Shown here piece by piece: positions 1-32,979 of a stretch of DNA of 33,208 bases. Position numbers and translations under genes: made by a program. The stretch comes from a virus (taxonomy: Duplodnaviria > Heunggongvirae > Uroviricota > Caudoviricetes). The notes under the pieces are model-generated. The model did no database searches, was not told where the DNA came from, and worked only from the letters and a program-made list of their open reading frames with translations. The DNA is taken from the IMG/VR virus record IMGVR_UViG_2579778919_000008, one strand, 5' to 3'. How positions within the stretch are numbered: the first letter of the stretch is position 1; the number at the start of each line of letters is the position of its first letter.

Positions 1-645
1 TTGACGAAGAGCTTCGCTGACATTAAAAATCTCAATCCACAAAAGGTTCGTTTAGAAAGAATCCAGCAAACAGCCAATGACACAGCAATTTTCTCACCCG
101 ACAAATCGAAATATATTTTCGTCGGGAATGATGGCTGGGGGGCATTTGTTCAGGGGGGCGGGAGACTGGCGTTATCAGTAGAGGGGGGAGGAACAGGGGC
201 CGGAACGCCAGAGAAGGCACGCGATAACTTGGGTATTACAACCCTGCTTGATGGCAAACAGACTAAAGATAATACCCTGACGAATCTCAGCGGAAAAACC
301 GTCAGTCAGCTACTGGATTATCTGGGCGTTGGATATACCTGTACAGGGGTTAACACTCCTGAAATGATTTACACCCTGCCGGGAGGGGTGAAAATACAGA
401 TTTTCACTCGTTCACTTGGGCATTCTCAGTCTGAAGGCGTGATAACCACTACTCCATTGACATTCCCCCAGGCGTTTCCAGGTGGCGTCTGGGGTGTATT
501 CGCATCGAAAAAAACATTCGTACAGGTTGCCACATCATGCGAAGTGTGGACCCGAACGGGATTTAACGCCATTACCGCGAAACTGGCAAATACATCGTCT
601 CCGGAAACAACATCAGAAACCGTATTTATCGCTATAGGATGGTAA
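1..645 (+). CDS. Alternative tail-fibre distal (receptor-binding) segment S'v, 5'-partial
   Basis: ORF open to the window edge; translation carries a GGTG...EKARDNLG tail-fibre shaft motif homologous to the S protein and ends in ...IAIGW; followed by a Tfa-type chaperone. Confidence 0.6.
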   Translation: MTKSFADIKNLNPQKVRLERIQQTANDTAIFSPDKSKYIFVGNDGWGAFVQGGGRLALSVEGGGTGAGTPEKARDNLGITTLLDGKQTKDNTLTNLSGKTVSQLLDYLGVGYTCTGVNTPEMIYTLPGGVKIQIFTRSLGHSQSEGVITTTPLTFPQAFPGGVWGVFASKKTFVQVATSCEVWTRTGFNAITAKLANTSSPETTSETVFIAIGW

Positions 646-1088
646 AAATGAATTACGCATTCAGCCCAACAGAAAATACTTTTTATTGTTACGACTGGAA
701 ATCTGATTTTGATGCTGCCGGAACATGGCCGGCAGATGCAGTTGATATCAGCGATGAGGTTTATCTTGAATATTCCGGGAATCCGCCAGTGGGTAAAACA
801 CGAGTTGCCGGAGATGACGGATTGCCCGAATGGGCAGATATTCCTCCTCTTACAAAAGAGGATTTAATTGCCGCCACCGAATACGAGCGCCAGCGACGAA
901 TAGATGTCGCCAACGATTTTATGAACAGCAAACAATGGCCCGGTAAGGCGGCAATTGGTCGGCTGAAAGGTGACGAACTGACGCAGTACAACTTGTGGCT
1001 GGATTATCTGGATGCACTGGAAGCGGTAGACACCTCCAGTGCGCCGGATATCAAATGGCCTACGCCTCCGGGAGAACAGGCCAGTTAA
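639..1088 (+). CDS. Tail fibre assembly chaperone U' (Tfa family)
   Basis: 149 aa; C-terminal region ...LTQYNLWLDYLDALEAVDTSSAPDIKWPTPP matches the conserved Tfa C-terminal pattern; start overlaps the S'v stop. Confidence 0.7.
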   Translation: MVKMNYAFSPTENTFYCYDWKSDFDAAGTWPADAVDISDEVYLEYSGNPPVGKTRVAGDDGLPEWADIPPLTKEDLIAATEYERQRRIDVANDFMNSKQWPGKAAIGRLKGDELTQYNLWLDYLDALEAVDTSSAPDIKWPTPPGEQAS

Positions 1089-1458
1089 CATGTTCAGGGT
1101 CGGTTGTCACGTCAGCCGACTTAACCTCATTTTTATAGGCCAGCCACGCCGACAATTTAGCCTTGTTGACGTCGCTGATTTCACCCAACATCAATTCCGT
1201 GCGCCAGTCCTGCATAACAGCGTCAGCATGGGCCAGTAGTTGCCGGCGCTCATTTTCAGCAGCCTGTATAAGCTCTTCACGTGATTTTTGTGGAAGTGGT
1301 GGTGGATTAAATGCTTTACCATCATATCGCCATCCAATGCTGACCATGCCATCCGTTAAAATAGCGATGCCTGCATCGGGCTTCCATGTGGATTTTCCAT
1401 CCCACACGACAACATTGATGACCATACCATCTTCAACAACTGCATAAATTTGTGTCAT
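1060..1458 (-). CDS. Tail fibre assembly chaperone U (Tfa family)
   Basis: Start taken at internal Met ([11 protein letters not shown]...), whose ATG overlaps the S stop codon as TAATG; C-terminus ...DWRTELMLGEISDVNKAKLSAWLAYKNEV...VNWPVLPEA is Tfa-like. The 3' end overlaps U' convergently. Confidence 0.7.
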   Translation of the reverse strand: MTQIYAVVEDGMVINVVVWDGKSTWKPDAGIAILTDGMVSIGWRYDGKAFNPPPLPQKSREELIQAAENERRQLLAHADAVMQDWRTELMLGEISDVNKAKLSAWLAYKNEVKSADVTTDPEHVNWPVLPEA

Positions 1459-2606
1459 TACGCGTACTCCCACACAATAACAATACCTGCCATACCTGCT
1501 CCGCCAGCGCGTTGTTGTGTTGCGCCGCCATACATGCACGCACCACTTCCGCCACCTCCAGGACCATTGGCATTGATTCCCTCGCCAACAATAGCCTGCG
1601 CACCTGCGCCAGCACCCAGCACTGAACTGCCTCCGGGACCGCCTATAGCTAAAGAACCGGAAATCCTGAAACCTGGTGAACTGTATCCACAACCGCTGCC
1701 GTAAATATTTGCGCCAGTGAAACCAGGCACGAAATATGACCCATAAGGCCCCACAATGCCTAGCGATGTACCCTCCGAGAGAAGGTTTCCTCCCAGCCCG
1801 CCCAGAGCAACAATATCTGCTCCGAATGAGGTAGCGCCGCCATGTTGGCCAACAGCCGCACTTGTACCAATACCACCCGCGCCGATAGTGACAGTGGTCG
1901 CTACAGGATTATCAACGCGCGCCTTGACATATTCACCTGACATCCCACCGCCGCCGCAAGCCGCATTACTGTTTGTTCCGACCTGGCATCCACCACCGGC
2001 CCCGCCGCCACCAACCATCTCGACAATTGAAAATGTCGTACCAGGTGTTGGGGTGTAGGTTCCTGACGTTTTGAAAACCTGGCATTTCACCAGGCGACCA
2101 GTGCCATCACCGAGTCCAAGGTTTTTAAGGGATTCAGCCTTGTTCCTGCCTCCTGTACCTCCGCGACTCACAGGAAGCGGAATAACCTCACCAGACTCGA
2201 CGACCTCCGCTCCCCATTGCCCGTTTTCACGGATTACCAGACAATTTTTTTTGACAGGATCGTATACAACCGTCTGCCCATTAGTGGTGGGATTGATGAT
2301 GTCGTATAAACGAAGATTTTCGAGAGCCGTTTTCACGGTGCCATCCGATTTGATATCGCCAAACGGATTTGAGCGACTCAGTAACAGCGCTTTTAATGCT
2401 GTTAATAACTGGTTTTGTTTAGAAGGATCAACATTAATACCGGCAGCGTTCAGGACAGTAATAAGCTCCGACTGCGCATCTCTGACAGCTCCCTGCACGT
2501 TATTCAGATGCTCAGCATCAACAATGGTCCCCAGCTCACCTGTGAGCGGATTACCATCATGGAAAAGATTATCCGGCGTCTGCACCGGTGGCATTAAGGG
2601 CCGCAT
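1458..2606 (-). CDS. Tail fibre protein S (constant N-terminus plus glycine-rich distal domain)
   Basis: 382 aa; position after baseplate genes; shaft motif [22 protein letters not shown]; long Gly-rich C-terminal half; immediately followed by a Tfa chaperone. Confidence 0.75.
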
Positions 2607-3178
2607 TATTCATTCTCCTGATATGCGAAGTAGCAAAATGTATGGGCTGGTTTGAGATCACGGAAGACGTCTTCAATAATCGGATCACCAAACGTTGTCA
2701 GGCGCTCACCTGCAGCTGAACTGCCTGAGCGAAAGCGATAGGATTGAGTTCCTGAGTTCTGAATATTGACGCGCCAGACCCAGATAATGTCTTCAACCCA
2801 GAGGCGATCACCGGCGCGGCCAACTCCCGCCCTGAAAGGTTGCGGTTCATCAATTGTGATGATGTAGCCAAGGTTGCTTGCCAACTGAGTAAAGTACGGA
2901 ATACTGAGACCACCGACTTCAGCCAGTTTAGCCAGTACACGCTGCTGGCGTTGCTGGTATGTCGCACCTTCAGCAGGAGTAAGGTCCAGGACGCGTTCCC
3001 AGTCATACAAAAGGCTGCGTGCATAAAATGGAGTAACTCCACCTTCAACAAGCCCTGCAGACGCATCGAGAGTCTCAAAAACACCTGATTCAGATCGCAA
3101 TGATGCATCAAGCAGAGGCTGGCCCGGGCTGTACGAAACAAGTGGCAGCAGACGATTTAACAGCGTGAAGTAGCTCAT
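2606..3178 (-). CDS. Baseplate/tail protein, Mu gp48-like (P2 gpI-like)
   Basis: 190 aa ORF between the baseplate J-like gene and the tail fibre gene, with start/stop overlaps to both neighbours; assignment by synteny and recollection. Confidence 0.6.
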
Positions 3179-4242
3179 AGCAGCTCTACCTCAACGTTTC
3201 CTAATCTGAGCCATTCGACTTTCGTGGCATCGATTATCGGTTGAATATTTGCCGATGGTGTAACGATGTCATAGTCGGTAATACCCGGAATTAGAGAAAT
3301 CAATGTCCCCGCCTGGCTGCGAATAAAAGCCACTCCAGGCTCTCGGCGCGAGTCATCGTCCTCCAGCGTTCCGGCGACAGCCTGTTTGGCTGCTGCGAGG
3401 GTGATGCCCTCCAGTGATACCTTCACGAGGACGTCAAATGTACGGATGACAGGCATGAGCACCAGCGTGTTTTTTGCTGTAACAGGCCGGACATCGTCAA
3501 TGTGAGCCTGCACCCTGTCGATCACATCCTGAGATGGCAGCCCACCTGTAGACGTGATCACAACATCAACGGTACCCGGCCCCCGCCGCAAAGGGTAAAC
3601 ATATGCGGCGGATACGCCTGATACCTCAAGCGCCCAGCGTTTGTAATCATATTTATTGCCGCCTGCAGGAGGTCGGCGGATGATTTCAAGCAGACGAGCA
3701 AGCAGCTCTGCATCCGTTTCCTCATCTGTTCCGCCAGTCATCAGGCCTACTGTCACTGTGCTGTCAAACCCATCAGGTGTTGTGGTCAGTGTGGCCGATG
3801 TGACGGAAGTGGTGTTACCAGTGGTTCCGGCCAGAGAAGATACTGCGTTTACCGATGATTTTCCATCTGACCCGACAATAATATCTTCGGTTGTTGTCCA
3901 CGAAACACTGTCGCGTTTGAACACAAGACCGGCAGCGGCCACCGCTCCTGGTTCGCCGGTAAACGTGGCAGGCCCGGAGGCGCTATTGGCTGCTTTTTTG
4001 CTTAAACCACGTAAACGGGCGTGCAGATAGAGGAATTCCGAATCAGCAGTATCCGGAAAGATCTGACGGACTATCCATCCCTGATTCTGATAAAGCCCCT
4101 CGGCAACACTGGCTACACTCGATGCCCGGATGTACCAGTCGCTGTCCGGGCCCAGCGTATCATCTGACAACTGCAGGAGATTTTTGATATCCCGCAGAAT
4201 GTCAGTGCGTATTTGCGCGGCATTTTTGGTAATGAATGGCAT
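3175..4242 (-). CDS. Baseplate J-like protein (Mu gp47-like)
   Basis: 355 aa; position and size; N-terminus MPFITKNAAQIRTDILRDIK typical of baseplate J family by recollection. Confidence 0.7.
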   Translation of the reverse strand: MPFITKNAAQIRTDILRDIKNLLQLSDDTLGPDSDWYIRASSVASVAEGLYQNQGWIVRQIFPDTADSEFLYLHARLRGLSKKAANSASGPATFTGEPGAVAAAGLVFKRDSVSWTTTEDIIVGSDGKSSVNAVSSLAGTTGNTTSVTSATLTTTPDGFDSTVTVGLMTGGTDEETDAELLARLLEIIRRPPAGGNKYDYKRWALEVSGVSAAYVYPLRRGPGTVDVVITSTGGLPSQDVIDRVQAHIDDVRPVTAKNTLVLMPVIRTFDVLVKVSLEGITLAAAKQAVAGTLEDDDSRREPGVAFIRSQAGTLISLIPGITDYDIVTPSANIQPIIDATKVEWLRLGNVEVELL

Positions 4243-4592
4243 CAGCTGACCTTAACCGGATATTTCCAGGTCTGCGGCGTTCCGCTCGCAGACGTGACGG
4301 TGATATGAAGCAGCATCCAGCCTTTTTGCCAGTGCTCTGCAGTAACGGAAATGGACTGGGCGCGACCGTCGTCAATAATCGGTTGCAGGGCCTGCCGCGA
4401 ATACTGCACTGCGAGTTGTTGAACGCGAGACACATCCTTTTCGCGGCGGAGTGTATGCAAAAGAGAGCCCAGAGTTGGATCAGCCCACCATGAGCCAAGG
4501 GGCGTCATCAGCCGTAAGTAGACGGCATTCGCTAAAGAGTCTGAGCTGTCGCCGGTATAATCGCCGGTCGTTGGATCAATCAACATTTCCAT
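4242..4592 (-). CDS. Small baseplate protein (Mu gp46-like, gpW/gp25-type)
   Basis: 116 aa ORF preceding baseplate J; 1-nt stop/start overlap (TGATG) with the downstream gene; first gene after the only sizeable intergenic gap in the tail module. Confidence 0.6.
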   Translation of the reverse strand: MEMLIDPTTGDYTGDSSDSLANAVYLRLMTPLGSWWADPTLGSLLHTLRREKDVSRVQQLAVQYSRQALQPIIDDGRAQSISVTAEHWQKGWMLLHITVTSASGTPQTWKYPVKVS

Positions 4593-4627
4593 GCCGTAAT
4601 ACTACCGGCATGGAAATTTAAATTATC

Positions 4628-4645
4628 GGTGAAGGGGTTCAGTGG
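4628..4645 (-). promoter_or_regulatory. Copy of conserved 18-bp motif (plus strand GGTGAAGGGGTTCAGTGG), candidate late-promoter activator site upstream of the gp46-like gene
   Basis: Identical 18-mer also at 24630..24647 upstream of lys and 16/18 match at 16473..16490 upstream of I; on the transcribed strand it is followed directly by GATAAT. Confidence 0.45.
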
Positions 4646-4681
4646 GTATTGCTTTTGAAGGAGAACTTACGTTACCACAAA

Positions 4682-5287
4682 TTACATTTGCTGATTAGGT
4701 TTCTGCGTTGTGCCTGCATCACCGCCGTGGTCGTGGTCGTGACCGTCATAAGTTTCACGCATGGTGTTCAGCGTAGAATTGCCGTCAGCGACTTCATTAC
4801 TGCCTTTCAGCAATGGTGTATCAAAATCTGCCCGCTCTGAGGCTGTGGTTTTATACGTTTTGGTATTAACAATATGTTGTTCGGTATTCACCGTGTGCTT
4901 TTTAGTATTAACGATATATTCATCGCAGTTTACTTCAATTATTTTTCCGCGCTTCAGAATAATGTTGCTTCCTTCAGCCGAATAAATGGCAAGCTCACCA
5001 CTTTTCAGGCTCTTTAGCCTGTATGCAGCGTGTTCCGTGGCAATCACCACGCTATGACTGGTGCGCCCGTTAAGCGGGAGCACAATGGCTTTAGTCCCCC
5101 TGGGCGGGTTGGATGTAAAACCGTACTGCTGAAACATCTCCACATCCTGCAGAGACTCAGTGGCCAGACCTTTACCCTGAATGGTCTGAATATCACCGCC
5201 GCTGTTAACCCTTATTAAAACGCCCCTGAAGGCCTTTCTGATACGGTTTAACGCCGTGTTAATACGAGAGTCAATTTTGTTCCACAT
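4682..5287 (-). CDS. Baseplate central spike / assembly protein V-like (Mu gp45-like)
   Basis: 201 aa; position between P-like and gp46-like genes; C-terminal repeats (YIVNTKKHTVNTEQHIVNTKTY) and His/Asp-rich tip DGHDHDHGGD. Confidence 0.65.
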   Translation of the reverse strand: MWNKIDSRINTALNRIRKAFRGVLIRVNSGGDIQTIQGKGLATESLQDVEMFQQYGFTSNPPRGTKAIVLPLNGRTSHSVVIATEHAAYRLKSLKSGELAIYSAEGSNIILKRGKIIEVNCDEYIVNTKKHTVNTEQHIVNTKTYKTTASERADFDTPLLKGSNEVADGNSTLNTMRETYDGHDHDHGGDAGTTQKPNQQM

Positions 5288-6488
5288 CGATAATCTCCAG
5301 CTCTTTATTTACTTTGGCGCGACGCTTACGTGATTTGCGTTTTTTCGGATAAGCATCCGGTATCCATATTCCATCCTCTTTGAGCCGCAGGGTGGTAATG
5401 GTGTTGTCTGGACGACCACCTGAAAACTCTCTTCCCATGAGGAAGTAAATGTCATCAATGCCATGCGGCTCGCTTCGGACACGAATACGCTGGCCCGGTT
5501 GCCATAACTGACCGTTCTCCATGCGATGGCCTTTAACAATTACTGTCAGATCAAACCCGTTCAGACGGGCGTCAGCCATGGCCTTTCTCGCGCGATAATC
5601 AACCTGCGCCTGATTATCAGCATCACCAGCAACCATAATCTGCGGACGATAGAAAGGTACGGTACTGTCGCGAACGGTACTACGTAAGCCATGAAAGCCA
5701 TTCTCTGCAGAGCCGGTGCTGTCATAAATTGCGTCGGCATCATCATCGTCTTCAGCCTCAGCGCTCTGATCATCAACGTCAATAACTTCCAGTCTTCCTG
5801 ACTTTTTCCCCTGGCCGTGTCCCTGTGCCAGCATTGTCAGTTCAGAGAACGCACCGGTAATGGATGACCGGTCACTGAGATCGAGGACATTATTTCCCCG
5901 ACCGTCACGATTCAGAACAAGCGTGGCTACAGGGTCTTTTGTGTAATCCGGCCCTCCAATTACCAGCGTGCCATCTGGCTCAAACCATGGCCATAACCCG
6001 CGTGCAGCAGCTGCACGCTCAAGGGTATCCCACGCACGTTCTCCGGGCTCCACGCTGACCTTGTCATTACGCAGGGATGATTCAGCCTCGATGCGGATGT
6101 TCGTTATCCCCAGCGGTCTGACAACCTGGGCGATCACCTCTTCAAGACTGAGCTGGCGGGAGGTAAAAACGGGTGAAGCGCAGTCAACAAGCACGGCTGC
6201 ACCATCGCGACCGGAAAGAGATAAAGAAACCTGCTGACGGGATACCCGGCGCTGAACCACATCCACCCGACCGGACATGACAACATCATTACCCACCCTG
6301 ACCAGCACCGGCACACCACGTTTAATGGCCGGAGGGAAAATACCATCAGGCAGCCCAAGCGTTACGCTCCATGCATCGGCGGGGATTAGAAAGTCGGAGT
6401 CAATCTGATAGCGGCTCCATGCACTATGGATTTTGCCATCAATAACAAGGCTCACTGTATTCTGCGAATTTTTATCTTGAGTAGGCAT
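5271..6488 (-). CDS. Tail/baseplate protein P (Mu gp44-like, P2 gpD-like)
   Basis: 405 aa ORF between N-like and spike genes; overlapping start/stop with both neighbours. Confidence 0.65.
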   Translation of the reverse strand: MPTQDKNSQNTVSLVIDGKIHSAWSRYQIDSDFLIPADAWSVTLGLPDGIFPPAIKRGVPVLVRVGNDVVMSGRVDVVQRRVSRQQVSLSLSGRDGAAVLVDCASPVFTSRQLSLEEVIAQVVRPLGITNIRIEAESSLRNDKVSVEPGERAWDTLERAAAARGLWPWFEPDGTLVIGGPDYTKDPVATLVLNRDGRGNNVLDLSDRSSITGAFSELTMLAQGHGQGKKSGRLEVIDVDDQSAEAEDDDDADAIYDSTGSAENGFHGLRSTVRDSTVPFYRPQIMVAGDADNQAQVDYRARKAMADARLNGFDLTVIVKGHRMENGQLWQPGQRIRVRSEPHGIDDIYFLMGREFSGGRPDNTITTLRLKEDGIWIPDAYPKKRKSRKRRAKVNKELEIIDVEQN

Positions 6489-7803
6489 TCAGAACGTCAC
6501 CGGCTTTGATATTGTTAGGATTACGTAGTGTCGGATTGAGACGCAGCAACTCGGCGGCGCGCGTGTAGTCCTCATACCACAGGTGGGCCAGCAAATGCAG
6601 GTTAGTGTCGGACAATACCACTCGCGTAGTCAGTGGTGGTCTGCTGGTAATAACCGCTGCGCCCAGCTCCTGAACGGTCAGGGCGATATCCTTGAGACCT
6701 TCAACCACGGGTTGCCAGGTCACGCCACCAGGTGTTTCACCGGCACTCAGGTTTTGCGTATCAGCAGCAAAGGTGTCCCGCGTCTGGTCGATTGCCTCCT
6801 GAATGGCCGTCCTGGTGTCGTTGGTGATCTGCTCAATATCAACGGGAGACAGAATATCGCTGATGCTGCTGTCACTGAGTATGTCGGAAGCATCAAGTGC
6901 CAGCTGGATTGCAACCTGAGTTTTTACCGCCGTTACCAGCTCGGTAATATCCGAGGTTGATGAGCCTGCCGGAATGGCAACAGCAACCGTTTTTTGCCCG
7001 GTCACTATCTGCTGAGGTAATGCGGCCACATCCTGCAGATTGTTACGGCCATTCTTCCAGTCGGCCATCACGATGCCTGCTGTGCCGGAAACGTCTGAGG
7101 ACTGTGAATAGCTTCCTGGATTATTACTGACACTTGATTTGGACTGAAACGACGTCAGACTCAGCGCACTCTGCAGGTCATTCATGAACGATTTTGGGTA
7201 ATTAACAAAATCCGAGGTGGTACTGACAAATCCCGTCAGTTCCCCCTTAAGCACGGTCACCATATTCAGCGTCGTGGTTGCCAGCGATTTCGCTTTTTTC
7301 ATCCACTTTTTCGCTGTACGCAGAGGCGAGAGAATATTGTCGATGGCCGTCTGGGCTTTCTCCAGAGCGGATTGCGCCTGGTTGAAAACGATATCAGCTT
7401 TCGACAGCGGGAAATCGCTGCCAAAGAAAGGCAGATTAAGTCCCCCCTGGATAAAGACCACTTCGACAACGCAGTAATCAACGTTCTCCGCTTCATGCGA
7501 TGCCTGATACTCAATGCACTGCATGCCCGTCATGGAGCCGAAAACGGGATGAATTAATTCTGCGCTACCGCGAGTATCCAGTGCGGCCAGAAACGCCTGC
7601 AGCCGCACATCATAATCATCACCCCAGAAAAGGACTGTCATCCGCAGGTTACGAGGCTTGCGGCCAAGATCATCAACATCACCACCGTCGACATAGGGAT
7701 ACTCATACGTCGCAATGTCGCGACTGGCGCTGTCACGGGTATTAACCACATCAAAGCGGACGCCCCTGAATGAGGCATCCTGTAATGAATCTTCCCAGCT
7801 CAC
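6472..7803 (-). CDS. DNA circularisation protein N-like (Mu gp43-like)
   Basis: 443 aa immediately downstream of the tape measure gene with ATGA overlap; N-terminus MSWEDSLQDASFRGVRFDV consistent with Mu N family by recollection. Confidence 0.7.
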   Translation of the reverse strand: MSWEDSLQDASFRGVRFDVVNTRDSASRDIATYEYPYVDGGDVDDLGRKPRNLRMTVLFWGDDYDVRLQAFLAALDTRGSAELIHPVFGSMTGMQCIEYQASHEAENVDYCVVEVVFIQGGLNLPFFGSDFPLSKADIVFNQAQSALEKAQTAIDNILSPLRTAKKWMKKAKSLATTTLNMVTVLKGELTGFVSTTSDFVNYPKSFMNDLQSALSLTSFQSKSSVSNNPGSYSQSSDVSGTAGIVMADWKNGRNNLQDVAALPQQIVTGQKTVAVAIPAGSSTSDITELVTAVKTQVAIQLALDASDILSDSSISDILSPVDIEQITNDTRTAIQEAIDQTRDTFAADTQNLSAGETPGGVTWQPVVEGLKDIALTVQELGAAVITSRPPLTTRVVLSDTNLHLLAHLWYEDYTRAAELLRLNPTLRNPNNIKAGDVLNAYSR

Positions 7804-29982: not shown

Positions 29983-30876
29983 TTAATGGATCAGCATTTC
30001 GGCTATCTGATTGACGATATGACCGCTGACCGGAACATCATTCATTGCACTGGTACGAACTGCACCGCGCAGTAGCTTGAACAGTCGGCGGGCATTACCT
30101 TTTGATGCGTTGAACAGCGCTTTGCTCAGGTCTTCATTCAGGCCATCCGGGAGAACGCTGCTGGCGATGACGTCAATATCAGCACCCGGCAGGCTATGCC
30201 CGAGGTTGAGGGCGAAACCGACACGGCTATAGAGCTGTACGAGCTCACCGCGTTTGCCCTTGAGGTTCAGAATCAGGCGAGGCATACCAACCAGGACGAT
30301 GCCGATCCCCGTTTTGTCATGAATGCGGCGGATAGATTCCAGCGCACGCAGAGGGAGGTTCTCAGCTTCATCAATAATCAGCACGCGCCCAGAGTCGCGC
30401 AGCTTGTTGATGCAGGCTTCGCTAAGTTCATGCATATTGCCGCGGGTACTGAGCCCCAGCAGGTTGCAGAGTTCTTCCAGGATTACGCGTGCGGTGTAGC
30501 CAGGGTCGGCCTCAATCAGCAACGCATCCCGGTATTTAGAGACGTAGGCTTTGCAAATCATCGTCTTGCCCAGACCGGCTTCGCCGTAAAGCACGTTGAT
30601 ATCACCTTCGACGTGCGCCATGCGTATAACATCAACGGCTTTGCGCGTTGTTGGGGTATCAACAAATTTGACGCTGATACGTGCCGAGCGCTCTTTTTCA
30701 TGCTGACGATCGATAAAGCTACGAATATCGTTTTCCAGCGATGCAATATCGCCGTCGTATTTATTATTCAGGTACTGGCTGATTACGGCAGAGCTCTTAC
30801 CAATAGCGCGGGCGACCTGCGTCTGGTTAAGACCTTTTGCTTTCATCAGTTCGACAAGTTCATTTTTAGCTGACAT
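29983..30876 (-). CDS. B: Transposition ATPase B (MuB-like AAA+ protein)
   Basis: 297 aa; N-terminal HTH-like segment and Walker A GEAGLGKT; directly downstream of the transposase with GAGGAAG RBS. Confidence 0.85.
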   Translation of the reverse strand: MSAKNELVELMKAKGLNQTQVARAIGKSSAVISQYLNNKYDGDIASLENDIRSFIDRQHEKERSARISVKFVDTPTTRKAVDVIRMAHVEGDINVLYGEAGLGKTMICKAYVSKYRDALLIEADPGYTARVILEELCNLLGLSTRGNMHELSEACINKLRDSGRVLIIDEAENLPLRALESIRRIHDKTGIGIVLVGMPRLILNLKGKRGELVQLYSRVGFALNLGHSLPGADIDVIASSVLPDGLNEDLSKALFNASKGNARRLFKLLRGAVRTSAMNDVPVSGHIVNQIAEMLIH

Positions 30877-30921: not shown

Positions 30922-32979
30922 TCAGAAGGCCGCTTTTTTATTGCCCTGACTTTTCAGCCACTCTTCTCGCTCTGACTCGAACAGGAACACGTGTTCCCGG
31001 TCATCATTAATACGCTCGGCATCTGATGGTATTAATGCGCCGAAATCAGGGTACATATCGCTTTCTGGCAGCAGTCCTCGCGCCTCTGCTTCAATCTCTT
31101 CTCGCTGTTCGTCAATGCGCTTCAGACGACGTTGGCGGCGTTTCTCAACGGCGATATCCATCATGCTGGTTGGCAGCGCGGCACGCTTGTTGCCGTTCCA
31201 GATGGCGGTGCAGACATAAGTACCGTCCATACGGCGAACGATGACGGCGGCAGGGTCGTGAATGTCATAGGCAACACGAACCTCTTCACCATCGACCTGT
31301 ATCAGGTCAGCGCTGAAATACTGGTTGTTCATCAGGTCAATCCAGCCTCTCTGGGCCGTACGGCACATTTCCGGCATGAAGGCTTCACGAAGTTCGATAT
31401 CCGTCAGATATTCAATCTCGTCCCCCTCAGTGGCCAGGACCTCGCGACGGTACTGTGCTGGCGTCATATGAACACCATTACGCTTCGGTAACTCGCTGTG
31501 CTCATGCAGGTTGTTGTATTTGTCGACTTCCTCGGCAATGGTATCCAGCAGCATCTGCCATGACGGCAGTTTACGCAGCGCATTACGCTGTACGCTCGTG
31601 AGCTCGCGGCCATTCTCCTGAGCCTTAATCGCTGACTGGATGGCGCGACCGGTCATCCGGACATGCTCACGGTCGGCCCCGAATCCGTTGTAAGTATCAA
31701 ATTTGTTGGCGATCGCTCTCGGTATTACGGCGTTCAGGCGTTCGATAATCCCGCGAGACTGAGGTCGGCCAGGAATACTGGTCGGGTGATCAATCCCCAT
31801 GCGGGTGAAAATACCGGTGATATCAGCATCCAGCGTTTTGTTCGTTTCGCCGCCACCGTTATCCGAATAAACAAAAAGAGGTTTCCCGTGGAATTTCATG
31901 GCGTAGCGATAGGCATCCGCTACGGCGATGACGTTCTCCGAGAGCGCCAGGCTCCAGCCCACCAGGAAGCGGGTTCGTCCATCAATCACCAGCGTCAGTT
32001 CGGGCGTGAATGGGCGACCATGGACCGGATGAGCAACTTTCATATCCAGCGATTTACCATCCGCAATCCAGCAACCATTTACGGGCATCTGTGACCAGTC
32101 ACGTTTCTGGTAAACCTCAAAGGCCAGAGCCGCTGAACCGCTGATACGGCCGCGAGCGCGTTCACGTTTGGGCAATTTTTCCATCGCACGGCGAACGGCA
32201 TCATAAGACGGACAGACGGCGAGCATCGCTGGCTGTCCCGCATAAATAGCCTGCCATTCAGTCTTGAATGAACGCCACGCATCCACCAGGGAAGGGCCTG
32301 AGAGTTTCCGCCAGTGGGCGAGAAAATCAGGGAGCCACTTAATCTGTTCAGGCTTACGCGCTTTAAGATGGCCAGGGGCCAGTAAAGCAAGACGTTCGAT
32401 ACCTGGACGGGTTGAAAGGTAAACAGACAACCATTCCTGGAGTGTTCTTTCACCCACGCCACGGCGGCTGGAGCCTTTACGGGCATTCGCAATATCAGCC
32501 GCAGCCTGGATGTTCTCCGGCAGCGAACCCTTGCGCGACTCTTTGGCGATGAACTCAACCGCCGATGCGCGAGACATACCGATATCCCGAAGGCGCTCAA
32601 CCTCTGCGGCTAATAATGCACGCGCATCGGCGATCTGTTTCTGGCGTTCGGTAAGGTCGGAAACTTCACGCTCCAGCAATACCGGGCACTGCCGTAATAA
32701 CGCCAGCTCATCACGGGTCGTGGTGACTTCCCGCTTTGGTGCCGTTGGAGCAACTGAACAATCAGACTGTTTCAACACCTCGCGATAATGCCGGGCTTTG
32801 ACTATTTCACGCGCCTGTTCAGGCAGGCAGTCGATGTGGTACTCGAATGCTTTGCTGCCAGCACGTTTGCGAACCAGTTCAGGGGAGTTGCCTGCACTTT
32901 TTTTAAGGCTGTATCGCAGTCCTTGTTGTGTTGTTGGCAATCCAGGGACGCCAACTAATTCGTTAACAGTCACGAACAT
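30922..32979 (-). CDS. A: DDE transposase A (MuA-like)
   Basis: 685 aa; N-terminal DNA-binding domains and central catalytic core typical of MuA; start 2 nt after the ner stop. Confidence 0.9.
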   Translation of the reverse strand: MFVTVNELVGVPGLPTTQQGLRYSLKKSAGNSPELVRKRAGSKAFEYHIDCLPEQAREIVKARHYREVLKQSDCSVAPTAPKREVTTTRDELALLRQCPVLLEREVSDLTERQKQIADARALLAAEVERLRDIGMSRASAVEFIAKESRKGSLPENIQAAADIANARKGSSRRGVGERTLQEWLSVYLSTRPGIERLALLAPGHLKARKPEQIKWLPDFLAHWRKLSGPSLVDAWRSFKTEWQAIYAGQPAMLAVCPSYDAVRRAMEKLPKRERARGRISGSAALAFEVYQKRDWSQMPVNGCWIADGKSLDMKVAHPVHGRPFTPELTLVIDGRTRFLVGWSLALSENVIAVADAYRYAMKFHGKPLFVYSDNGGGETNKTLDADITGIFTRMGIDHPTSIPGRPQSRGIIERLNAVIPRAIANKFDTYNGFGADREHVRMTGRAIQSAIKAQENGRELTSVQRNALRKLPSWQMLLDTIAEEVDKYNNLHEHSELPKRNGVHMTPAQYRREVLATEGDEIEYLTDIELREAFMPEMCRTAQRGWIDLMNNQYFSADLIQVDGEEVRVAYDIHDPAAVIVRRMDGTYVCTAIWNGNKRAALPTSMMDIAVEKRRQRRLKRIDEQREEIEAEARGLLPESDMYPDFGALIPSDAERINDDREHVFLFESEREEWLKSQGNKKAAF

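Follow-up and report, generated by a model that had tools for sequence, protein, structure and literature searches.

Known tail-fibre switches and the locus under study

The closest described counterparts of the locus considered here are the invertible tail-fibre segments of the Escherichia coli element e14 (P segment), of phage Mu (G segment) and of phages P1 and P7 (C segment). The locus lies at the left end of a 33,208-nucleotide stretch of Caudoviricetes DNA (IMG/VR record IMGVR_UViG_2579778919_000008), which is called the window hereafter, this term meaning the whole stretch that was analysed. In this locus, a minus-strand fibre gene S and its chaperone gene U converge on a plus-strand chaperone gene U' and on a fibre segment without a start codon, S'v. 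With a probability that we would put at roughly 0.85, positions 49-2312 of the window are the part that inverts in a tail-fibre switch of the Gin/Pin type carried by a Mu-like E. coli prophage. The original prediction, made from the sequence of the window, had likened this geometry to that of the Mu G segment, and it turns out to be closer still to that of the e14 P segment.

In e14, the genes stand in the same order and on the same strands, with ymfQ, stfP and tfaP facing tfaE and stfE, then pinE, which is transcribed away from the segment as is the invertase gene here; besides, tfaP and tfaE overlap by 29 bp, exactly as U and U' do. The crossover points also coincide, both in their codon position within a homologous constant part (encoding ALENL) and in their core dinucleotide TT. 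The e14 site pixL, located in stfP, reads CTCTCGAAAACC TT GGTTTGGGAGAA and encodes ALENLGLGE, its outer half being one base away from that of the S site described below, and the e14 site by pinE reads TTTTCATAAACG TT GGTTTGGGAGAA. Inversion of the e14 segment was seen by sequencing and polymerase chain reaction, and it fuses stfE to ycfK (PMC4272514). Several features nonetheless set the two loci apart: the inner halves are GGTTTGGGAGAA in e14 but CGTTTA... here, the repeat is 17 bp long in e14 and 8 bp here, the proximal outer half ends in AAACG in e14 and in ...AAAAGG here, and PinE is only 52% identical to the invertase of the present locus. In addition, extra adapters of 61-65 amino acids (aa) are present in both variable parts here, the fibre tips differ, and e14 is a lambdoid remnant whereas the present element is a Mu-like transposable phage.

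Regarding Mu itself, the resemblance extends to the MuA/MuB-like transposition genes, to the gp45-gp48 baseplate genes upstream, to the placing of S, U, U', S' and invertase, in this order, at the right genome end, and to a site inside S with a shared constant part (Sc). Mu differs by its 34-bp perfect repeats, its core TC, an Sc of about 170 codons and an invertase, Gin, that is about 51-53% identical. The C segment of P1 and P7, inverted by Cin, shares the invertase family, the 26-bp sites inside the fibre gene and the alternative Sv/U sets, whereas cin reads towards its segment with cixL overlapping the 3' end of cin; the enhancer of P7 cin is annotated at nt 19-86 of the gene, while here no distal Fis site corresponding to it is evident. 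In p15B, the Min system likewise combines an invertase of this family, 26-bp sites within the fibre gene and Sv/U sets that can replace one another. Among phage records, the closest invertases are of the PinL type (69-72% identity) and belong to phi80 (pinL), HK225, mEp237, mEpX1 and Citrobacter phage Omnitron. The subfamily region GRYNFRNILSAAQYESDLNSERT is common to them and the present enzyme, and a proximal site of the form ...AAAGG TT occurs in related loci. They belong, however, to side-fibre loci of siphoviruses, and the phi80 fibre fragment next to pinL is a pseudogene. To our knowledge, none of the PinL-type invertases of lambdoid phages has been tested biochemically.

Organization of the segment and its crossover sites

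All the open reading frames described in the original prediction are present. On the minus strand, S (1458-2606) encodes a fibre of 382 aa, in which residues 1-98 form the constant N-terminal part Sc (2315-2606), codon 98 being completed by the core TT at 2313-2314, and the remainder forms Sv, the expressed variable part (1458-2312), made of a 65-aa adapter (2118-2312; RLYD...GGTG...KNL) followed by a distal domain that is tumour necrosis factor (TNF)-like as well as glycine-rich. The chaperone gene U for this expressed fibre (1060-1458, minus strand, 132 aa; PF02413, E-value 2e-18) has an ATG that overlaps the S stop codon. Facing it on the plus strand, U' (639-1088, 149 aa; PF02413, E-value 3e-30; phrog_188) encodes the chaperone for S', and the 3' ends of the two genes overlap by 29 bp at 1060-1088, the length that had been estimated beforehand. 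Looking up the exact U' protein sequence gave no match; the database gene call for U' is 146 aa rather than 149 aa long.

The silent alternative C-terminal fibre part, S'v (1-645, plus strand), is a 214-codon frame open from base 1 to the stop codon at 643-645, with neither an ATG nor a Shine-Dalgarno sequence. The frame stays open for 8 codons further left of the window, again without an ATG, and the TTG at 1-3 is therefore coincidental. The variable part starts with the CGT codon at 49, extends to the stop (643-645) and comprises a 61-aa adapter (49-231; RLER...GGTG...DNL), then a gp53-like distal domain ending in IAIGW. The probability of a start-less open frame of 214 codons is about (61/64)^214, i.e. 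3.5e-5, and because all the open reading frames, in addition, have tail-fibre, chaperone or baseplate family matches, chance is excluded. The silent frames are intact, over 199 codons for S'v and throughout for U'. The segment is made of two convergent sets, each combining a variable fibre part with a chaperone, of which the silent one is start-less, and both join Sc in frame.

Two imperfect 26-bp Pin-type sites with a 12-2-12 arrangement and identical cores (TT/AA) stand in inverted orientation, one in the fibre gene and one by the invertase gene. In the gene direction, the site inside S (2301-2326, minus strand; core 2313-2314) reads CTCTCGAAAATC TT CGTTTATACGAC; it follows codon 98, encodes ...ALENL/RLYD (the slash marking the crossover here and below) and is homologous in both position and sequence to e14 pixL. 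The invertase-proximal site (35-60, plus strand; core 47-48), at the 5' end of S'v, reads ATCCACAAAAGG TT CGTTTAGAAAGA, encodes KV/RLER and turns its outer half-site towards the invertase, whose ATG is 109 nt away. The exact core shared by the two sites is 8 bp long (TTCGTTTA), and 2264 bp separate the core dinucleotides (49-2312). In both sites, the core TT corresponds to codon positions 2-3 of the same frame, and exchange would therefore yield an in-frame protein of 296 aa ending in IAIGW. The original prediction erred on two details: it placed the S site within 2380-2606, just outside of which the site actually lies, and it expected a recognisable inverted repeat, of which only these two imperfect sites with their 8-bp exact core are present, no long inverted repeat being found in the segment (best pair, 14 nt at 86%).

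S and S'v are alike over only about 87 aa, namely the GGTG...NLG stretch (30% identity, E-value 1e-5), and the corresponding DNA matches over just 21 nt at 81%, in agreement with the earlier claim that this shared motif is homologous at the protein level only. The likeness spans the last 20 residues of Sc and the flank outside the proximal site (window 1-46), which encodes KSFADIKNLNPQKV and resembles the end of Sc, and it then runs on through the adapter of each variable part. This flank is a decayed duplicate of the Sc end, and the inverted repeat was therefore once longer. As a separate observation, 62 bp at the 3' end of Sc, adjoining the crossover site (2308-2369), recur with 93-95% identity in Shigella phages SfI, SfII, SfIV and SfV as well as in some E. 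coli phages, the remainder of S having no DNA-level match to these phages.

A second, decayed Pin-like motif occurs at 2106-2131 (minus strand; rank 9th in the matrix scan presented below, score 6.0), at the adapter/tip junction KNL/GLGDG, and its inner half GGACTCGGTGAT has diverged from GGTTTGGGAGAT by synonymous changes. It is probably a fossil site. A matching motif is found in S'v at about 218-243 (DNL/GITT), also at the adapter/tip junction, and related fibres contain two or three NLGL motifs with tandem GGTG adapters, which suggests that fibre modules may be delimited by former crossover sites. Both NLG motifs of the segment (about 2106-2131 and 218-243) were considered as crossover sites and rejected, as their in-frame cores differ (TT vs. 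TG) and their half-sites are decayed.

Cassette boundaries in related loci

In related loci, modules and cassettes have been exchanged or reversed exactly at these cores. When the predicted hybrid fibre was searched against 5.8 billion proteins and the 120 best matches were considered, more than 100 database proteins (P0002-P0120) were found to have residues 1-98 of S at 99-100% identity and to diverge thereafter, with tails beginning by GLG, RLG, QLG, RLER, QLER, HLEE or RLYD. The constant part also has a weak match to Mu S (5yvq, E-value 0.004). Conversely, P0001 is 99.5% identical to S'v with a different upstream flank, the change falling exactly at V/RLER. In P0007, a homologous RLER adapter is fused to the constant part, and the predicted type of junction therefore exists in expressed form.

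At the DNA level, five loci (L003-L005, L100 and L101) are copies of the same prophage, 99.4-99.9% identical up to position 10299 of locus L001 and again from 12554/12558 through the invertase gene. Between those points they have other cassettes, which places the breakpoints on the two cores; on either side, cassettes begin or end 0-5 bp from the core. A 1.06-kb module of the Sv+U type that ends exactly at the core occupies the silent position in metagenome locus L025, and in L100, L101 and L105 the same module is turned round and occupies the expressed position (97-98% identity, same flanks). In the metagenome contig L007, the very cassette of the window (99.5% identity over 2282 bp) lies between two inverted copies of a PinE-like invertase flank, with junctions reading ...TTATCGGAAACG TT/CGTTTAGAAAGA and ...TT/CGTTTATACGAC and a flank reading ...GGAAACG TT/. 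The simplest reading of this contig is that both orientations may be present in that sample, an assembler artefact being the alternative. One and the same cassette (99.5%) is thus associated with two different invertases, the cut in each case lying exactly at the core.

A survey of 112 metagenome and IMG/VR loci encoding invertases 70-99% identical to the present one gave NNNNNNNAAAGG TT followed by a variable inner half, 73-110 nt upstream of the ATG. The invariance of AAAGG TT in these loci is built in, since it was the search pattern, and the survey only informs on frequency and regularity; it indicates that the unusual proximal outer half-site is the norm for this invertase subfamily. Searching IMG/VR for exact copies of the two cassette ends gave no matches, and a scan of species-representative genomes with an 18-mer of the flank gave only 12 chance matches in unrelated phyla.

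The invertase

The original prediction expected a serine invertase just outside the window, and inspection of the sequence to the left, in an identical contig, uncovered an intact gene of 186 aa, full length, whose ATG lies 62 nt left of base 1 and which is transcribed away from S'v in a divergent arrangement. The protein has the make-up of a small serine recombinase, with an N-terminal resolvase domain (PF00239, E-value 1e-36), the catalytic serine, a C-terminal helix-turn-helix (PF02796, 23.1 bits, just below the cut-off of 23.8) and a length in the range of about 185-195 aa. Residues 1-185 align without a gap to Gin (3uj3; E-value 6e-55), and Ser9, D64, R65, R68 as well as the motifs WKLDR.GR and GRIGGR..K...STLYK are kept. 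Its identity amounts to 52% with PinE, 51-53% with Gin, Cin, Pin and annotated Hin, and 72% with phi80 PinL, whereas it reaches 97-99% with the invertases of about 20 of the loci compared here. The classical invertases Hin, Gin, Cin and Pin are about 60-70% identical to each other. Rather than grouping closely with these, the present enzyme belongs to a separate subfamily with a different helix-E region, where PinL-type invertases have R106 and Y114 instead of the H106 and M114 of Gin. Changes at positions 106 and 114 reportedly make Gin Fis-independent. A classical recombinational enhancer consists of a pair of Fis sites, spaced 48 bp apart, within the 5' region of the invertase gene. A 15-mer like a proximal Fis site (GAGTATCAAGTAACC, nt 20-34) was located in the invertase gene by a home-made scoring scheme.

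Upstream of the gene, an element CTCTGATAACCTGGTTCTAC containing the imperfect palindrome TGATAACC-T-GGTTCTA is found at positions 12617-12640 of L001, that is about 10-33 nt left of base 1 of the window and 30-50 nt upstream of the invertase ATG. The palindrome is kept in L029, L030, L034, L035 and L037, whose invertases are 77-99% identical, and a weaker version occurs in L084. As it resembles two invertase half-sites with an odd spacing, it may be an operator for self-regulation. Besides, the metagenome invertases of L087 and L090 are chimeric, with about 60 N-terminal residues of the classical Gin/Pin type and the rest identical to the PinL type, and their proximal cores are TC.

The altered helix E, the asymmetric proximal site ...AAAGG TT, the lack of a recognisable distal Fis site and the conserved palindrome raise the rather doubtful idea that the PinL-type branch could be mechanistically distinct, with inversion that would be enhancer-independent or self-regulated. 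Alternatively or in addition, and just as tentatively, the sites could serve as docking points for cassette exchange between unrelated phages, an idea prompted by the occurrence of the same cassette (99.5%) behind two different invertases, cut at the core.

Weighing the alternatives

A number of observations weigh against a switch that would still operate in this prophage. Regarding the sites, only 15 of the 26 positions are common to the two, and at the Sv end the inner half, CGTTTATACGAC, does not follow the consensus where the recognition helix binds. A site matrix, built from half-sites verified in Mu, P7 and e14 together with hix sites, ranks the S site first and the proximal site third over the 41.7 kb scanned, with scores of 14.3 and 9.2 that are weak compared with 27-29 for gix, cix and pix, shuffled sequence reaching about 12. 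Since these scores are far under those of classical sites and within the shuffled range, the matrix alone proves nothing, and the standing of the sites rests on the comparative boundaries. At the place expected for a distal Fis site, the home-made scoring found no G...C 15-mer, either here or in the relative with 72% identity. The flipped product, in which Sc would be followed by RLERIQ..., is not among the 120 best matches in the 5.8 billion proteins, and this cassette is oriented alike in its two chromosomal copies (L001 and L006).

The low site scores, the exact core of only 8 bp, the shared orientation of the L001 and L006 cassettes and the missing flipped protein are what would be expected of a frozen relic, that is a cassette once invertible that no longer flips, its sites having decayed and S'v and U' being silent leftovers; the nearest invertase in phage records, phi80 PinL (72% identity), moreover adjoins a decayed fibre fragment. 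We consider this unlikely, as 199 codons of S'v and the whole of U' are intact and the full-length invertase retains its catalytic motifs, and as L007 has both cassette ends on one flank at exactly these cores. Besides, other loci also have CGTTTA-type inner halves at their proximal sites, and the proven e14 site pixR has this type of sequence in its outer half.

Less probable still is a system of three or more sites like p15B Min, in which the motif at 2106-2131 would recombine with the proximal site to give a third fibre with two tandem adapters. This motif is indeed correctly oriented (AA on the plus strand) and in frame, with a good outer half (CCCTTAAAAACC), and the tandem GGTG adapters and multiple NLGL motifs of related fibres would fit such a scheme, but its inner half is decayed by synonymous changes, the matching S'v motif has the core TG instead of TT in that frame, and such a junction is not seen in any locus. 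Least of all can the pattern be put down to mosaicism only, with cassettes swapped by homologous recombination in conserved flanks and the coincidence of boundary and site reflecting nothing but conserved sequence: many different cassettes do lie between identical flanks and flipping between the same flanks was met in half-cassettes only, not in a complete cassette, yet homologous exchange cannot reverse the same module between the same flanks, the boundaries are 0-5 bp from the core on both sides, and the invertase gene is always adjacent.

Proposed working of the switch

As a Gin/Pin-type inversion of positions 49-2312, the locus would work as follows. Late transcription would proceed from the baseplate genes through Sc and, in the sequenced orientation, on into Sv and U, giving the 382-aa fibre with its glycine-rich tip, similar to that of Pam3 gp24, together with its chaperone. 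The invertase would bind both 26-bp sites, cut at the core TT and rotate and rejoin the strands, whereby the 2264 bp would be inverted. Sc would then be in frame with S'v (ALENL/RLERIQ...), giving a fibre of 296 aa that has a gp53-like tip, with U' coming next, while Sv and U would become silent beside the invertase gene. The predicted junctions of the flipped form are GAAAATCTT/CGTTTAGAAAGAATCC and CACAAAAGGTT/CGTTTATACGACATC. The invertase presumably still flips this cassette in this strain, and Fis and an enhancer may take part.

The two fibre tips

Past the 61-65-aa adapter, the tips of S and S'v are unrelated, as had been anticipated: the former matches PF21722 (Gly_rich_2), and the latter is gp53-like, its match to the PF21882 gp53-like C domain being below threshold (20.8 bits vs. 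a cut-off of 24.9) while its closest relatives carry PF21882. Most relatives are without an adapter and P0043, for instance, goes from ENL directly to GLGDG and the glycine-rich domain. The two tips would thus be expected to recognise different receptors.

The AlphaFold model of S has a mean pLDDT (predicted local distance difference test) of 50 and is usable at residues 170-276 and 345-382; as it is poor elsewhere, only top fold matches were used. The best structural likeness of the S tip, found from this low-confidence model, is to Pam3 gp24 and gp38-type adhesins. Foldseek gave the fibre of cyanophage Pam3 (7ypx) as best PDB match (E-value 7e-8, 25% identity over 241 columns), further matches being to Bxb1 tail-tip proteins and, more weakly, to the glycine-rich domains of ALK/LTK. 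By sequence alone, the similarity to the Pam3 fibre is not significant (E-value 0.84). Pam3 gp24 has a TNF-like and glycine-rich receptor-binding tip and is folded with a Tfa-like chaperone (PMC9608196). Several relatives of S (P0029, P0043, P0045 and P0080) are named 'carbohydrate kinase' or 'integrase' in public records, evidently wrong labels for fibre variants of the glycine-rich or collar type.

Host element and neighbouring genes

Positions 1-12606 of the window are 100% identical to the E. coli draft contig ATJZ01000023.1 (assembly GCA_000482045.1), a match obtained via an exact look-up of S. Left of the invertase gene come torT, torR and torCAD, with 100% identity to E. coli chromosomes. 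Other genes of the element encode a MuA-like transposase (window 30922-32979; PF09299, PF02316 and rve), a MuB-like AAA ATPase (window 29983-30876) and a DUF3164 protein. The same prophage (99.4-99.9% identity) borders different host genes in seven loci, among which torT, BapA, LysE, BcsG and accA/dnaE. This gene content, namely a MuA-type DDE transposase and a MuB-like ATPase, and the variety of chromosomal insertion places identify the element as a Mu-like transposable prophage of E. coli, most of which is contained in the window. On its right, the prophage ends at position 13334 of L001, where the shared sequence stops in ...CGCGCTACA (...CA), 106 bp past the invertase stop codon. Among 50,697 phage records, no close relative of the whole element was found.

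Directly upstream of S, a gene for a Mu gp48/YmfQ-like baseplate wedge protein (2606-3178, minus strand; PF10076, E-value 1e-27) occupies the position held by ymfQ in e14 and by gp48 in Mu. A scan of the sequence for promoters and terminators performed no better than on shuffled sequence. In the metagenome contig OIPA01001647.1 (L027, positions 898-1299), a baseplate J gene is fused directly at AACCAGGTTA, 30 nt upstream of the invertase gene; this contig appears to be a deletion derivative of the same prophage from which the gp48 gene and the entire fibre segment are gone, be it by a real deletion or through an assembly chimera.

Concluding remarks

The switch described here is of an already known kind, and the known working of such switches is unchanged by this locus, the peculiarities of which are short degenerate sites, adapters in both variable parts and a PinL-type invertase. 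The presence of an invertase outside the examined sequence could be predicted from geometry alone, that is from convergent chaperone genes, a start-less fibre tail and a shared motif. In annotation pipelines, such silent halves end up as pseudogenes or under stray names. For one family of Mu-like prophages in the Enterobacteriaceae, cassette boundaries are now available to the exact base, which can be used for reading potential host range from genomes and for fibre engineering by cassette swap at the crossover.

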